A stretch of DNA of 64,000 bases from Acidobacteriota bacterium (GTDB taxonomy: Bacteria > Acidobacteriota > UBA6911 > RPQK01 > JAJDTT01): NCBI GenBank assembly GCA_965263035.1, contig OZ253580.1:2592001-2656000 (forward strand), in the 5' to 3' direction. Under the pieces are notes generated by a model that was given only the letters and a program-made list of their open reading frames with translations, was not told where the DNA came from and ran no database searches. How positions within the stretch are numbered: position 1 is the stretch's first letter; every line of letters begins with the position of its first letter. Below, piece by piece: positions 7,375 to 10,525 of this stretch. Both the position numbers and the translations under genes were made by a program.

Positions 7375-8543
7375 TGCGGGTTCGAACGGGCCTTGACCTC
7401 TTTCTGGACCAGCGGCTGGACCTGGTGGCCGGCAAGCGGGTCACCGTCATCGCCCACTCCGCCTCGGTGGACTCCCGCATCCGCAACATCGTCGACCTCT
7501 TTCGGCATCATCCCGAGATCGAACTGGTTTCGGTCATGGGCCCGCAGCACGGCATTTACGGAGAGACCCAGGACAACATGGTGGAGTGGGAGGGTTACCG
7601 GGACCCGGACTCGAAGCTCCCGTTTCACAGCCTGTACGGAGAGACACGGCGGCCCACCCGATCCATGTTGTCGGAAACCGACGTCCTGGTGTTCGACCTG
7701 CAGGACGTCGGTGCCCGTTACTACACCTTCATCCACACCCTGGCCCTGGTCCTGGAGGCCGCGGGCGAGTCGGGGAAGGAGGTCGTGGTCCTGGACCGTC
7801 CCAATCCCATCGGCGGCGTCCAGTTGGAGGGTCCGGTGCTGGATCCGGCCTTCCGGTCCTTCGTGGGGTTGTATCCCCTGCCGATCCGGCACGGGATGAC
7901 CATGGGAGAGATCGCCGGCTACCTGAACTCGGAGTTCGCGTTGGGATGCTCGCTCCAGGTGGTCCCGATGCAGGGTTGGAAACGGGAGATGTACTTCGAG
8001 AATACGGGCCTGCCCTGGGTCATGCCCTCTCCCAACATGCCCTCGGTGGAGACGGCCCTGGCCTATCCGGGACTCTGCCTGCTGGAAGGGACCAACGTCT
8101 CGGAGGGGAGGGGGACCACGAGACCCTTCGAACTCTCGGGAGCCCCCTGGATTTCGGCTCCGGCTCTCGTTGCCGAACTGGAATGCGCCCGGCTTCCGGG
8201 AGTCCACTTTCGGCCCCTTTACTTCATTCCCACCTTTCACAAATGGGCCGGCGAGCGGGTGGGGGGAATCCAGATCCACGTCACCGACAGAGCCCGGTTC
8301 AAACCCTTTCTGACCGGGCTGGTCCTGGTGCGCCTGTATCGCGAGTTGAGCGACGGAAGGTTCGAATGGAAGCCGCCGCCCTACGAATACGAGATGGAGA
8401 AGCTCCCCTTCGATATTCTCTGCGGCACGGATCGCCTCCGGCTCCAATTGGAAGACGGGACGGCGCCTCAGGATGCGGCCCGGCAATGGCAGCCCCAACT
8501 TAAGGCCTTCGAAGAGGTGCGGCAGCGGTATCTGCTCTACTGA
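7374..8543 (+). CDS. namZ: Exo-beta-N-acetylmuramidase NamZ (DUF1343/YbbC)
   Basis: GPQHG, FDLQDVGARYYTF, LDRPNPIGG, RHGMTMGE, PSPNMP and SEGRGTTRPFE; TGATG overlap with mqnA. Confidence 0.92.
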   Translation: MRVRTGLDLFLDQRLDLVAGKRVTVIAHSASVDSRIRNIVDLFRHHPEIELVSVMGPQHGIYGETQDNMVEWEGYRDPDSKLPFHSLYGETRRPTRSMLSETDVLVFDLQDVGARYYTFIHTLALVLEAAGESGKEVVVLDRPNPIGGVQLEGPVLDPAFRSFVGLYPLPIRHGMTMGEIAGYLNSEFALGCSLQVVPMQGWKREMYFENTGLPWVMPSPNMPSVETALAYPGLCLLEGTNVSEGRGTTRPFELSGAPWISAPALVAELECARLPGVHFRPLYFIPTFHKWAGERVGGIQIHVTDRARFKPFLTGLVLVRLYRELSDGRFEWKPPPYEYEMEKLPFDILCGTDRLRLQLEDGTAPQDAARQWQPQLKAFEEVRQRYLLY

Positions 8544-8743
8544 TGTCGTGGCAGACGAGGGAAAACGAATGGGGCTTATATATCTAACTTGATGGATCGT
8601 CATGAAGATGTACTGTGAGGGTTCACACAACATTTCAGTGCCGAGCCAAGATGTCCAAGGGAGGGCTTCGGCGTCTGGATTGGATCAGATCGGTTTTGAA
8701 CCGCCTCTACAATTCCGCCCTGGAGGAGCGTAAGGACACCTGG

Positions 8744-8902
8744 GAGCCTGCGCCGCAGAAATTGATCTACTGCGAAAGCGGTAGAATCGGTCCATATTTC
8801 CCCGATTTCTCGACGAATAGAACAACTATGCACCTCCAGATCGAGAAAATCCGGCCTCGATTCCCCACTTTCTCGCTACGATCATTTCTACCGCGCAGAC
8901 TC
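8744..8902. mobile_element. 159-bp MITE nested in tnpB
   Basis: Imperfect TIRs of about 38 bp (GAGCCTGCGCCGCAGAAATTGATC... vs reverse complement GAGTCTGCGCGGTAGAAATGATC...); 4-bp TSD CTGG at 8740-8743 and 8903-8906. Confidence 0.88.
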
Positions 8903-9850
8903 CTGGGAGAAGGATGAGAAATCCGTGACTCTGTATGACCGGTTGCGGAGTTTGACGCAGCAGCGGAGAAACGATCCGGACGGGCTCGGGGCCATTGCCG
9001 TCAAGGCCGAAAGGGGGATGTTGTTTCGCTTGGAGCGAGCCTTCCAGGCCTGCTTCCGGCGCTGCAAGGCGGGAGAGGATCCTGGGTATCCCCGGTTCCG
9101 ACCGATCTCCAGGATGGAGACCATTGATATCGTCGATCCCAGGACGACGATGGTGAAGAAGCGGGCCCGAGGATACGCCATCCGTCCCCAGGGCTTTCCG
9201 ACGATTCGGTTGTTCCCGGCCCGGCCCTTGCCCGATGCTGAACTCAAGGCGTTGCGGATCGTCCGCAAGCCGAATCGAGTGTACGTGGATCTGACCTATG
9301 AAGTCGAGAAGCAGCCGATGCCGGGGTGTGCATCGGCGGTCGGAATCGACCTGGGTGTCCGCAAGCGGGCGGTTTTGTCCACCGGTGAACGAATCGAACG
9401 CAACACCCGGGACCGGGCGGAGATCAGGCGGCAACAGAGAAAGATTGCTCGGTGCCGGCGGCGGTCGAACCGGAGGAAGAAGAGAGTCCGCCGGTTGGCG
9501 GGAATGCGTTTCCGGGAGGGTGTACGCAACCGGAATGCCTGTCACCGGCAGACCACTGAGATCATCCGCAAGAACGGACTGATTGCGGTGGAGAAGTTGG
9601 ACATCAAGGGGATGACGACGAAGGGCTTGAATCGGGAGATGCTCTCACAGCAATGGGGGCTGCTGCGGAATCAACTCCAGTACAAGGCAGAGTGGGCCGG
9701 TCGGGAGTTCGTGGAAGTCAACCCACAATACACGTCGCAGGACTGTCACCGTTGTGGTGCCCGGAATCGACCGGGAAGGAGCGAGACGTATCGCTGCTCA
9801 GCCTATGATCTCAGAATGGACAGGGACCATAATGCAGCCCTGAACATTCT

Positions 9851-9931
9851 CAGGGCGGGGGTTCTTGCCCTGGGTGCCGAAACCTGGGCCAGCGGGCCGA
9901 GCGTGGCGCCGGAACTGTGTGCTGACGTCAA
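9851..9931 (+). ncRNA. Putative TnpB omega/reRNA scaffold core overlapping the 3' end of tnpB
   Basis: Hairpin CAGGGC/GCCCTG (9851-9872). Stem GGTGCC/GGCGCC (9873-9910) enclosing GGCC-AGCG-GGCC. Position is typical for omega RNA; boundaries are inferred. Confidence 0.5.
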
Positions 9932-9955
9932 GTCAGATATATAAGCCCCAAACGA

Positions 9956-10525
9956 ATGTCAGAGGAGAGGCGGCAACCGCCGATGGAGATCGAGGCCAAG
10001 GTCCCTCTCGAAGTGGAGGAACTGGGTACCTTGCGCTCCAGGCTGCGGGAGATCGGGGCCCGCCTCAGCCGGCCCCGCCTCCGGGAGGAGAACACCCTCT
10101 TCGACTTCCCCGACGGAAGATTGGAGCAGGCCGATTCCGCCCTCCGGGTCCGGTCCTTCGGTCAGGAGTGCCTGCTGACCTACAAGGGGAGGAGCCGGGA
10201 GCACTCCTTTCTGAAGTTGAGGGAAGAGATCGAGACCCGGGTGGAGGACGCGGCCGCACTGGTCGAGCTGTTCGAAGCTCTGGGGCTTCGAAAGGCCTTT
10301 CACTACTGGAAGTATCGCGAGATCTACGACCTGGAAGTGCACCCCGGAGCCGTCACCATCGCGCTGGACGAGACGCCGATCGGCTTCTTCGCCGAGGTCG
10401 AAGGCCCGGAGGAATCGATTCAGGTGGTGGTCGATCTCATGAGTTGGGACCCGGCGTCGTTCATTCGGGAAAGCTACCCCAAGTTGTATCGGGAGCACGG
10501 CCTCGGGTCCCCGGGAGTGGAATGA
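9956..10525 (+). CDS. CYTH-domain protein (class IV adenylate cyclase-like/triphosphatase)
   Basis: EIEAK, LRVR, LTYKG, REEIE, KYRE and LDETPIGFFAEVEG. Confidence 0.9.
   Translation: MSEERRQPPMEIEAKVPLEVEELGTLRSRLREIGARLSRPRLREENTLFDFPDGRLEQADSALRVRSFGQECLLTYKGRSREHSFLKLREEIETRVEDAAALVELFEALGLRKAFHYWKYREIYDLEVHPGAVTIALDETPIGFFAEVEGPEESIQVVVDLMSWDPASFIRESYPKLYREHGLGSPGVE

Follow-up and report, generated by a model that had tools for sequence, protein, structure and literature searches.

The window, a stretch of 64,000 nucleotides from the genome of an Acidobacteriota bacterium (here G000), carries an element of 1379 bp at positions 8571–9949, in the spacer between namZ and a downstream CYTH gene. 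Its ends are inverted repeats of 22 bp that agree at 21 of 22 bases. The left terminal inverted repeat (TIR), GGGGCTTATATATCTAACTTGA, occupies 8571–8592 on the plus strand, and the right one, with the reverse complement GGGGCTTATATATCTGACTTGA, occupies 9928–9949 on the minus strand. Both arms are directly flanked by the 8-bp duplication (TSD) AAACGAAT, the left copy of which lies at 8563–8570, while the right copy, at 9950–9957, overlaps the ATG (9956) of the CYTH gene. A degenerate 22-mer of the TIR has exactly two occurrences in the window versus 0.00 expected from 100 shuffles. With up to three mismatches allowed, the left-TIR pattern is matched nine times in the genome, and the reversed-pattern control is not matched at all. 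The coordinates and the shuffle test bear out the initial annotation, which had described 22-bp TIRs (21/22) abutting an 8-bp TSD. Both TIRs start with 5'-GG (GGGGCTTATATA...), which is a criterion of the IS1595 family. Inside the element, tnpB is the sole ORF that matches a known family, and its stop codon, TAA at 9942–9944, falls within the right TIR; the ORF and domain search thus agrees with the earlier description of tnpB as the only cargo, with its stop in the repeat. No DDE_Tnp_IS1595 transposase ORF was found between the TIRs of the window cassette by ORF and family search, which marks it as a derivative or hitch-hiker of the IS1595 family and not as an autonomous member; the latter encode such a transposase, in most groups with a Zn ribbon at the N-terminus.

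The product of the window's tnpB matches PF07282 (1.2e-23) and PF01385 (8.4e-14) and scores 194.2 bits against the NCBIfam model NF040570, guided_TnpB (cut-off 100). The gene lies on the plus strand in two parts. The 5' part, at 8615–8738, has a GTG start and encodes the N-terminal ~41 codons, which are out of frame with the remainder according to the translations and the alignment with the sibling copies A, B and C. The 3' part, at 8902–9944 (listed ORF 8925–9944), encodes the RuvC and zinc-finger region, as assigned from domains and the sibling alignment. Between them lies an insertion of 163 bp at about 8739–8901, the boundary of which is ambiguous by eight bases (CCTGGGAG) and which is missing from siblings A, B and C. 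It is a MITE, present in G000 in 163 copies of at least 150 nt with a median identity of 96.4%, and its insertion is the cause of the frameshift in the window copy. In addition, codon 9804–9806 reads TAT (Tyr) in the window copy, as opposed to TGT or TGC in the siblings, where it encodes a Cys of the second CxxC. Judged from its sequence, the window copy is a dead fossil, with tnpB split by the MITE and a zinc-finger cysteine lost. The intact sibling copy B encodes a TnpB of 388 aa, the same length as the repaired protein given by the initial annotation. An alignment of P0001, an intact sibling protein, with the ISDra2 TnpB structures 8bf8 and 8exa covers residues 31–368 (E 1e-27), and the intact copy retains the aligned RuvC motifs GIDLG, VEKL and DRDHNAA as well as both CxxC pairs.

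The site without the element is found in related genomes. Each of the eight congeners searched gives matches to the namZ and the CYTH flank that lie side by side or nearly so, and nothing between these two pieces matches the cassette. The junction was read in seven of these, and the TIR is absent from all seven. AAACGAAT occurs once in two of the junctions (G007 and G001), and a variant 8-mer is found in the other five. The empty namZ–CYTH site, which the initial annotation had suggested looking for in relatives, therefore exists, and the element has inserted in this spacer with duplication of 8 bp.

About 25 cassettes flanked by duplications, the window copy among them, are spread over six genomes that belong to a single Acidobacteriota genus; each has as its cargo just tnpB and a stretch of structured RNA at its 3' end. 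G000 harbours four copies with the same ends, three of which carry distinct perfect 8-bp TSDs (TTGGGTTT, CTTCTTTT and AAACGAAT), so that the sibling copies with other duplications expected at the outset are present. Among 28 cassettes examined in the six genomes, the TSD is perfect in 20 and matches at 7/8 in another 3, and five (L039, L041, L048, L053 and copy C) are without a clean TSD; copies A and F have perfect TSDs too. Copies of one subfamily are 93–99.8% identical, which implies recent activity of the cassettes, and TnpB identity across subfamilies is 62–80%, which implies that the association of tnpB with the TIRs is old and maintained. The layout recurs as well. Across five or more TIR subfamilies, 27 of the 28 cassettes have 44–75 nt between the left end and the start of the tnpB match, which stops 8–38 nt short of the right end, with the stop codon within or shortly before the TIR. 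Both the D type, to which the window copy belongs, and the E type have the stop codon within the TIR.

Of the 28 cassettes examined, with homologues of at least 62% identity, 27 are bounded by TIRs, the exception being L041, which gave none, and 42 of 44 homologues of 44% identity or less are without a TIR of at least 17 matched bases. The phylogenetic neighbours are thus TIR-bounded as well, a point that the initial annotation had wanted checked. In a tree of 52 TnpBs, the nine rows with both TIR and TSD form a single clade (SH-aLRT 99); a Y1 TnpA adjoins tnpB in one distant relative. A scan of JGI metagenomes gave no close relative of the TnpB, the best match being partial and 46% identical (L143). 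This match represents the same SAR202 locus as L061. As far as the ends can be read, the TnpB clade as a whole is TIR-bounded, and its TIRs fall into five or more subfamilies; an established lineage replaces the one-off "packaging" of tnpB assumed initially.

A possible source of transposase is present in the same chromosomes. G000 has 17 DDE_Tnp_IS1595 (PF12762) matches, and at least one IS1595 match occurs in each of the six cassette-bearing genomes. Twelve transposase-bearing elements have resolvable TIRs and 8-bp TSDs, with TIRs that start GGGGATTATATA or, in one element, GGCGATTAT. Eleven of them agree with the cassette at 11 of the first 12 TIR bases, and four IS1595 element types of G000 share 11/12 terminal bases with it. 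The 335-aa transposase of a 1762-bp element matches PF12762 at 5e-38 and reaches 178.7 bits, with a cut-off of 75, against the NCBIfam model NF033547 ("IS1595 family transposase"). The D-type TIR of the window agrees with this element at 11/12 of the first bases and at 14/22 overall, the ends of the sister subfamily E agree with it at 22/26 bases, and over its first 12 bases the right end of the E type is identical to the D-type ends. Beyond the TIRs, the 1762-bp element and the cassettes have nothing in common. Among the elements with resolvable ends in nine genomes, no transposase-bearing IS1595 element has the D-type inner TIR (positions 13–22, TCTAACTTGA). The agreement with the ends of a transposase-bearing IS1595 element, for which the initial annotation had proposed to look, is thus partial, covering the terminal bases (11/12) and the E-type ends (22/26) but not the D-type inner repeat.

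The distribution of the two kinds of element differs between genomes. G005 has four to five young cassettes, but its sole IS1595 match carries a stop codon, and G002 has 12 IS1595 matches and no cassette. Among the loci examined, no composite of transposase and tnpB within one TIR pair was found. A 733-aa frame with an IS1595 domain in G002 was considered as a fusion and rejected, as it represents an upstream gene reading through into an inserted IS. The cassette is probably moved in trans by an IS1595 transposase, and the earlier proposal of a TnpB in a non-autonomous IS1595-like cassette gains support from the siblings, the shared termini and the empty sites.

Other origins and roles of the cassette can be considered. 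The mover may be a DDE transposase outside IS1595 that likewise generates 8-bp duplications (e.g., ISL3, IS6 or IS256), with the shared GGGG.TTATATA termini being coincidental. Such a mover would agree with the D-type TIR, whose inner 10 bases match no IS1595 element found here, and 8-bp TSDs and GG ends occur in several IS families. However, coincidence has to account for 11/12 terminal bases common to four IS1595 element types of one genome, for the 22/26 agreement of the E subfamily with the 1762-bp element and for the identity of the D-type ends and the E-type right end over the first 12 bases, which makes this mover improbable. Chance nesting, in which an ordinary tnpB element of the IS1341 type inserted into a MITE derived from IS1595 and both have since moved together as a composite, is a possible origin of such a lineage, and there are indeed distant relatives without TIRs, one of them with a Y1 TnpA. 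As an account of the present cassettes it is barely credible, since the spacing between the ends and tnpB stays within the above ranges in 27/28 cassettes of at least five TIR subfamilies, the cassette has no space for separate IS605 ends, and the 62–80% identity of TnpB between subfamilies speaks for an old, maintained association. The recurrence of this spacing and of the stop-in-TIR layout favours integration of tnpB into the element over a chance nested insertion, as the initial annotation had argued. Exapted TnpBs exist, and the TnpB of this clade might be a nuclease-dead, TldR-like regulator that is no longer a nuclease for element maintenance. No evidence favouring such a regulator was found; the conserved RuvC motifs and CxxC pairs of the intact copy, together with a tnpB gene that is multicopy, mobile and TSD-flanked, render it very unlikely.

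The 3' end of the cassette, at 9737–9949 on the plus strand, forms a putative omega-RNA-like structured region that overlaps the 3' end of tnpB and enters the right TIR. In an alignment of 15 cassettes, 46 pairs are predicted, 11 of them with compensatory changes; 97.4% of the cells at predicted pairs do pair, versus 36–49% with slid partners, and the best-supported helices lie at ~9851–9910. The covariation supports a conserved, omega-RNA-like structure that extends from the 3' end of tnpB to the right end of the element. A search of Rfam families over 8400–10100 (E up to 1) gave none for a guide RNA and only a sub-threshold rpsB sRNA (E 0.41). The runs X1 and X2 (one study), X13 and X16 were covered as assembled contigs, which give no ends, strand or level. 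In the two RNA libraries, the summed contig depth in the bin 9863–9943 is 22931 and 7875, versus 92–137 over the tnpB body. The runs of unrecorded kind have no comparable excess in the same bin (3.2 versus 4.5 in X13, 1018 versus 168–566 in X16), and the high-depth contig bears the letters of a sister subfamily. Contig depth at the 3' end of the cassette is a weak hint at RNA. Contigs omitting exactly the 163 bases of the MITE are present in all four runs; among the assembled contigs of these runs, none spans the whole element.

When the cassettes are oriented with tnpB on the plus strand and the base before the TSD is counted as -1, their insertion sites share a G|A motif. Position -1 is G in 22/23 cassettes and TSD base 1 is A in 23/23; with copies A and F added, the counts become 24/25 and 25/25. 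The background in AT-rich 8-mers of G000 is 0.42 for G and 0.37 for A (p = 9e-8 and 1e-10). Transposase-bearing IS1595 copies, in contrast, have G at -1 in 7/18 and A at base 1 in 9/18 cases (Fisher p = 1e-4 each), and G|A is present on either side in 8/18. The sole exception to G at -1 is the window copy, and G precedes all three indel-unambiguous empty sites (before AAACGAAT in G007 and G001 and before the variant ACACGAAT in G003). TIR position 5 (left/right) varies by subfamily, being C/C, A/C or A/A. Since G|A holds across subfamilies with differently differing ends, no common end asymmetry explains the orientation. The gene context of the sites is mixed: at about half of them a forward gene starts no more than 60 nt away, and others lie at divergent or convergent genes. 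Several sites resemble a Shine–Dalgarno sequence followed by a spacer and a start codon, among them the window site (GAGGGA|AAACGA-ATG), L052, L057 and L059; such a context fits some sites as the cause of G|A, yet it was rejected in view of the mixed gene context. One orthologous intergenic site has been struck independently by two subfamilies, in the same orientation. The literature yielded no account of an oriented motif in the flank, nor of a difference from the autonomous partner in this respect, and this orientation rule at the insertion site appears to be new.

The element at 8571–9949 is quite likely a non-autonomous IS1595-family derivative with tnpB and omega-RNA-like cargo, a reading that includes the following steps of trans-mobilisation and retention. 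The cassette would be moved by IS1595 DDE transposases that are supplied in trans, bind the termini common to both kinds of element and cut AT-rich targets with an 8-bp stagger. The last ~210 nt of tnpB together with the right TIR would encode the structured omega-RNA-like scaffold, and the RNA of TnpB would be transcribed out through the right end into the flank. TnpB and this RNA would cut the homologous empty site, so that the cassette is copied back and preserved. This empty-site cutting would have left its footprint in the strictly oriented G|A(W) of the left junction, which would act as the TAM or part thereof.

The oriented G|A may accordingly be described as a TAM-like constraint; in OMEGA systems (TnpB with omega RNA), a TAM adjoins the site that the guide from the flank matches. 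It is suggested tentatively that (G)G|A(W) is the TAM of this TnpB, placed across the flank/TSD junction, and that TnpB with its RNA serves a TSD-making DDE cassette as a device for retention or drive. The right end reads ...CCCC|A, so that the occupied site would be no target, and the empty site, ...GG|A..., would be one. Conceivably, only insertions in the TAM-compatible orientation become established, although a TAM filter that yields 24/25 in 99% identical copies would need to operate upon insertion or shortly afterwards, which counts against it. A bias imposed by the TnpB RNP on DDE insertion itself is most unlikely. Alternatively, and with similar reserve, the orientation might reflect target choice by the transposase, or the AT-rich 8-mer context combined with orientation selection, TnpB being a mere passenger. 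Several sites do resemble a Shine–Dalgarno sequence with spacer and start, the use of one site by two subfamilies in the same orientation fits a strong intrinsic site preference, and the youth of the copies favours a bias at insertion over later slow loss. The passenger role is nevertheless at odds with the presence of G|A on either side in just 8/18 transposase-bearing copies, with the constancy of the motif across TIR subfamilies that have unlike ends and no shared asymmetry, and with the mixed gene context.

TnpB is thought to be suited to transposons that excise without a scar, such as IS605 and IS607. Its rarity in DDE elements is a question discussed in section 6.2 of a 2026 review (PMC13565253), and the genus is a compact natural system for this question. 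It offers ~25 young tnpB-only cassettes, at least five end subfamilies, likely IS1595 helpers in the same chromosomes, empty orthologous sites, a covariation-supported scaffold entering the TIR, and an insertion-site orientation rule that is absent from the helper elements. This rule leads to a concrete, cheaply testable TAM prediction and opens a route to asking how an RNA-guided nuclease copes with a variable 8-bp TSD. If the motif is indeed a TAM, the system would parallel Fanzor1 in prokaryotes, and natural data would show its cost, as the autonomous partner inserts either way round and the hitch-hiker one way only.

DDE-linked TnpB with inverted ends is an already published kind of system, of which the window case is a further example at the family level. 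Altae-Tran et al., 2023 (PMC10691335) describe DDE-associated TnpB branches with inverted terminal repeats, which they judged mobile, and solo TnpBs between the same ends that are moved in trans. As in the cassette, TnpB is located between inverted terminal repeats, with the 3' end of tnpB no more than 250 bp from the transposon end. Unlike the present case, the main text names only IS630, and the term "IS1595" has no occurrence in this main text. The 2026 review gives ISL2, IS630 and IS1031 as DDE families with TnpB. Literature pairing "TnpB" with "IS1595" contained nothing on such cassettes, as judged by title and abstract. With the IS1595 family (PMC8101967), the cassette shares GG-initiated TIRs, 8-bp TSDs and AT-rich targets, and its termini are common to elements whose transposase matches DDE_Tnp_IS1595, Zn_ribbon_IS1595 and NF033547. 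It differs from this family in that it carries tnpB and a structured RNA without a transposase gene, and in that its insertion is oriented to G|A, whereas that of the transposase-bearing copies is not. IS200/IS605 elements, unlike the cassette with its TIRs and 8-bp TSDs, have no TIRs, no TSD, subterminal hairpins and a Y1 HUH transposase (PMC13565253). Their IS1341 group nevertheless resembles the cassette in the protein family (PF07282, PF01385, NF040570), in the structured RNA over the 3' end of tnpB and the right end, and in a tnpB-only organisation with the transposase in trans. The group is further characterised by asymmetric hairpin ends and by insertion 3' of a motif of 4–5 nt that is fixed.

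In eukaryotes, Fanzor is said to reside in cut-and-paste transposons with TIRs and TSDs, reportedly described by Bao and Jurka in 2013. Fanzor1/Fanzor2* resemble the cassette as TnpB-family nucleases in non-autonomous TIR/TSD elements (Yoon et al., 2023, PMC10711439), and their guide RNA likewise passes through the TIR. For Fanzor elements, the TAM is taken to include the 5' TSD (PMC13565253), and the interpretation of G|A(W) as a TAM spanning the flank/TSD junction follows this model. Unlike Fanzor, the window cassette is prokaryotic, is tied to the DDE family IS1595 and has a TSD of 8 bp that is mostly variable, which implies that past its first two or three bases the TSD is no fixed part of the scaffold or TAM.

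The tnpB cassette of the window (copy D, 8571-9949, 1379 bp) lies between namZ (PF07075 and PF20732) and a gene encoding a CYTH-domain protein. Its terminal inverted repeats (TIRs; left arm 8571-8592, right arm 9928-9949) have 21 of 22 bases in common, and each adjoins a copy of the target-site duplication (TSD) AAACGAAT, at 8563-8570 and 9950-9957. A degenerate 22-mer of the TIR occurs in the window at these two arms only, against 0.00 occurrences expected from 100 shuffles. The sole family-matched ORF between the arms is tnpB (Cas12f1-like_TNB, 1.2e-23; OrfB_IS605, 8.4e-14), and its stop codon TAA (9942-9944) lies inside the right arm. The initial annotation, which described tnpB as packaged alone in this way with its stop codon in the right TIR, is borne out on both points.

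The cassette is a genuine insertion. In all eight congeneric genomes the two flanks are adjacent or nearly so, with no sequence match to the cassette between them, and none of the seven congeners whose junction was read has a TIR there. AAACGAAT is present as a single copy at the orthologous site in G007 and G001, and the other five of these congeners have a variant 8-mer. The insertion point is the 24-nt spacer from the namZ stop to the CYTH start, and the duplicated 8-mer overlaps the CYTH ATG, so that a purine-rich stretch once located before the ATG now lies beyond the far end of the element. The CYTH ATG (9956; region 9950-9958) is parted from the GAGGG that precedes it in the empty-site relatives, and now follows ...TATATAAGCCCCAAACGA.

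In the source genome, G000, the window spans C1:2592001-2656000. The TIR 22-mer has nine matches in the whole genome at three or fewer mismatches, compared with none for a reversed control. They form four inward-facing pairs, copies A to D, and the sibling copies with other TSDs that the initial annotation had proposed to look for are among them. Copy A (G000:C1:1410204-1410852, 649 bp, TSD TTGGGTTT) carries an internal deletion, copy B (1228 bp, TSD CTTCTTTT) is intact, copy C (1243 bp) has no clean TSD, and the window copy is broken. When the four are aligned, only the window copy carries an extra 163 nt (8739-8901) within the N-terminal portion of tnpB, and it has a TAT codon in place of a zinc-finger Cys of the others. 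The insertion is a MITE, a small non-autonomous element with 163 copies of at least 150 nt in the genome (median identity 96.4%). The TnpB protein of copy B (P0001) is uninterrupted and 388 aa long, as predicted for the repaired window protein. It scores 194 bits with NF040570 (guided_TnpB), and its residues 31-368 align with ISDra2 TnpB structures, the RuvC and CxxC motifs being preserved. Copies B and D are 97.9% identical. Given the MITE insertion and the lost cysteine in copy D, the intact copy B and the close identity of the two, the window copy is, as judged from sequence, a defunct element from a family that was active recently.

The MITE itself is approximately 164 bp long, with inverted ends of about 20 bp (GGAGCCTGCGCCGCAGAAAT...) and flanks of CT(A/G) on one side and T(A/G)G on the other. 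It is abundant in congeners too, and its contig depth was very high in all four runs compared.

Further tnpB-only cassettes are present in the source genome. E1 and E2 (G000:C1:1310799-1312042 and 1946003-1947246; 1244 bp each; TSDs ATATTCAT and TATTTTAT) are 99.8% identical to each other. Copy F (G000:C1:6144028-6145129, 1102 bp, TSD ATAAGAAG) is degraded, and copy H (around G000:C1:3840395-3841580) matches at 7 of 8 TSD positions; all four belong to other end subfamilies. A solo TIR resembling a right end, with three mismatches, is located at G000:C1:2001919-2001940, and two 5'-truncated cassettes (G000:C1:570600-571379 and 2396874-2397608) retain their 3' RNA region and right TIR. The first flanking base past the right end is A in all three.

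The tnpB cassettes are a lineage rather than an accident. P0001 has matches in six of 41 related genomes, all six of the same genus, and in none of the 32 genomes outside it. Among 185,579 species representatives, homologues of at least 62% identity occur in five Acidobacteriota MAGs only, followed by a SAR202 MAG at 44% and others at 36% or less; a scan of JGI metagenomes gave no further close relative. GG-type TIRs bound 27 of the 28 cassettes examined (the exception is locus L041), with a perfect 8-bp TSD in 20 and 7 of 8 bases in three. At least five end subfamilies can be distinguished: D-type, E-type, GGGGATTATAAAGAGTGTTTGACAC, GGGAATTATAAAG... and GGGGCTTATATACTTGGCTAGC. The distance from the left end to where the tnpB match starts is 44-75 nt, and that from the end of the match to the right end is 8-38 nt.

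Among homologues of 44% identity or less, a TIR of at least 17 matched bases was found at only two of 44 loci (L061 and L068), and among metagenome loci at two of 32 (L141 and L149). L061, the SAR202 locus (the same as L143), is a 1382-bp element with a TIR of 17/17 bases (GAGACGATTTCACAAAT) unrelated to those of the cassettes and a 7-bp TSD, TGTGTAT; its TnpB is 44% identical. L068, L141 and L149 are elements about 1.3 kb long that contain tnpB only; their TIRs are of a third type, (G)GTAG.G..TCAGTTTGAA, with 21/22 (as in L068) and 23/23 matching bases, and they have no recognisable TSD; the TnpB match of L141 is identical to that of L068. One distant TnpB relative has a Y1 TnpA upstream (PF01797, 1.2e-40). 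In a rapidly built maximum-likelihood tree with 52 rows, from which four rows with internal stops were left out, the nine rows with TIR and TSD form one clade (SH-aLRT 99). The neighbours of this clade are L149 and L068/L141, which are TIR-bounded as well; L061 branches as sister to the Acidobacteriota clade. The different TIR type of L149 and L068/L141 suggests a wider DDE-linked TnpB clade whose partner ends have been exchanged.

The source genome has 17 matches to DDE_Tnp_IS1595, and for 12 of them TIRs and a perfect 8-bp TSD were resolved. The commonest element is 1762 bp long, with TIRs of 26/26 bases (GGGGATTATATACGAAAGTGCCGAAA); three other types start with GGGGATTATATA or GGGGATTATATC, and one with GGCGATTATTC. 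The 1762-bp element's 335-aa protein matches NF033547, "IS1595 family transposase", at 178.7 bits (cut-off 75), and PF12762 at 5e-38, with PF12760 slightly below threshold. In general, 8-bp TSDs usually flank IS1595 members, which have a zinc finger and a DDE_Tnp_IS1595 domain (PMC8101967). The window cassette agrees with the ends of these G000 elements at 11 of the first 12 bases and at 14 of all 22. In the ends of E1 and E2, 22 of 26 bases agree with the 1762-bp element, and by blastn the TIRs are the sole sequence the two cassettes have in common with it. The E right end starts with GGGGCTTATATA, identical to the start of both D-type ends. The 1762-bp element (L012, G000:C1:1740263-1742024, with at least six near-identical further copies) has a passenger region of about 700 bp beyond the transposase gene. 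A 733-aa frame with an IS1595 transposase at L232 (G002:C1:510500-516500) is not a fusion protein, as an upstream gene reads through into an inserted IS copy.

The end similarity and the copy family support the earlier proposal of a non-autonomous IS1595-like cassette, which IS1595 transposases would mobilise in trans. Each of the six cassette-bearing genomes has at least one IS1595 match; in G005 the sole match is broken, and G002 has 12 matches and no cassette.

The 3' region of the cassettes has a conserved predicted RNA structure. Fifteen cassettes were aligned over their last 220 nt and 20 nt of flank, and RNAalifold predicted 46 pairs, 11 of them with compensatory changes. Pairing is retained in 97.4% of cells, compared with 36-49% after shifting partners by 1-3 columns, and double changes occur in 35 cells, compared with 2-7 after such a shift. 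The contrast is inflated because the structure and the pairing counts come from one alignment; the compensated pairs are independent of this effect. Three helices, with three compensated pairs each, lie within the coding region at approximately 9851-9910. A short hairpin with the inner right TIR as its 3' arm (CTGAC-GTCAA-GTCAG in a D-type example) was also seen by eye in every subfamily, without a counterpart at the left end. The region has no Rfam match.

When the TSD-flanked cassettes are turned so that tnpB is on the plus strand, their insertion sites follow an oriented motif, G/A, where the slash marks the start of the TSD. G precedes the TSD in 22 of 23 (and stands one base further out in 15), and TSD base 1 is A in all 23, base 2 A or T in 23 and base 3 A or T in 22. 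With copies A and F, which lie outside this set and are both G/A, the counts become 24/25 and 25/25. The mirror side lacks the complement (base 8 is T in 8/23, the following base C in 10/23). Against AT-rich 8-mers of G000 alone (A first 0.37, G before 0.42), binomial p is 1e-10 and 9e-8. Gene-oriented transposase-bearing IS1595 copies, by contrast, have A in 9/18 and G in 7/18 (Fisher p 1e-4 each), and G/A on either side in only 8/18; the register of one of them (L224) was set by eye with a one-base shift. By eye, TSD base 7 is T in 17/23 cassettes and in 5/18 autonomous copies. The sole exception for G is the window copy (GAGGGA/AAACGAAT), and G occupies that position in all three empty sites aligned without indel ambiguity. 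In G007 and G001 it is followed by AAACGAAT, in G003 by the variant ACACGAAT. Copy A and L040, a cassette of G004, are inserted at one and the same orthologous intergenic position and point the same way. Their TSDs differ (AAACCCAA and AAACGAAA), as do their subfamilies, and for these reasons they look like independent insertions at one repeatedly used site.

An asymmetry of the ends is an unlikely cause of this orientation, since the way in which the two ends differ varies between subfamilies and the motif is kept throughout. Some sites fit a Shine-Dalgarno-spacer context, which does not account for the mixed gene contexts overall. Tentatively, TnpB with a guide derived from the flank might cut the empty allele, a proposal that we regard as possible rather than probable. 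The right end of the cassette reads ...CCCC/A and the empty site ...GG/A, so a TAM (the motif next to the TnpB guide target) spanning the flank/TSD junction would tell empty and occupied sites apart.

In line with the initial annotation, the IS200/IS605 and IS607 hosts of tnpB lack both TIRs and TSDs (PMC13565253). Altae-Tran et al. (2023; PMC10691335) tied TnpB branches to DDE transposases, with the tnpB 3' end at most 250 bp from the element end, and reported solo TnpB copies whose bounding ends hardly differ from those of elements with a transposase, "mobilized by transposases in trans". IS630 is the family named in the main text of that paper, and a 2026 review lists ISL2, IS630 and IS1031 (PMC13565253). 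"IS1595" is absent from the same main text, the six branches being specified in the supplements, and titles and abstracts on TnpB with IS1595, Fanzor with Merlin, or non-autonomous TnpB moved in trans yielded no description of a tnpB-only cassette with IS1595-type ends. The IS1595-type cassette extends a kind that is already in print by one more family. It provides a well-populated natural data set and a rule of insertion-site orientation worth testing. The TAM proposed here would resemble that of Fanzors, in which the 5' TSD is part of the TAM (PMC13565253, PMC10711439).
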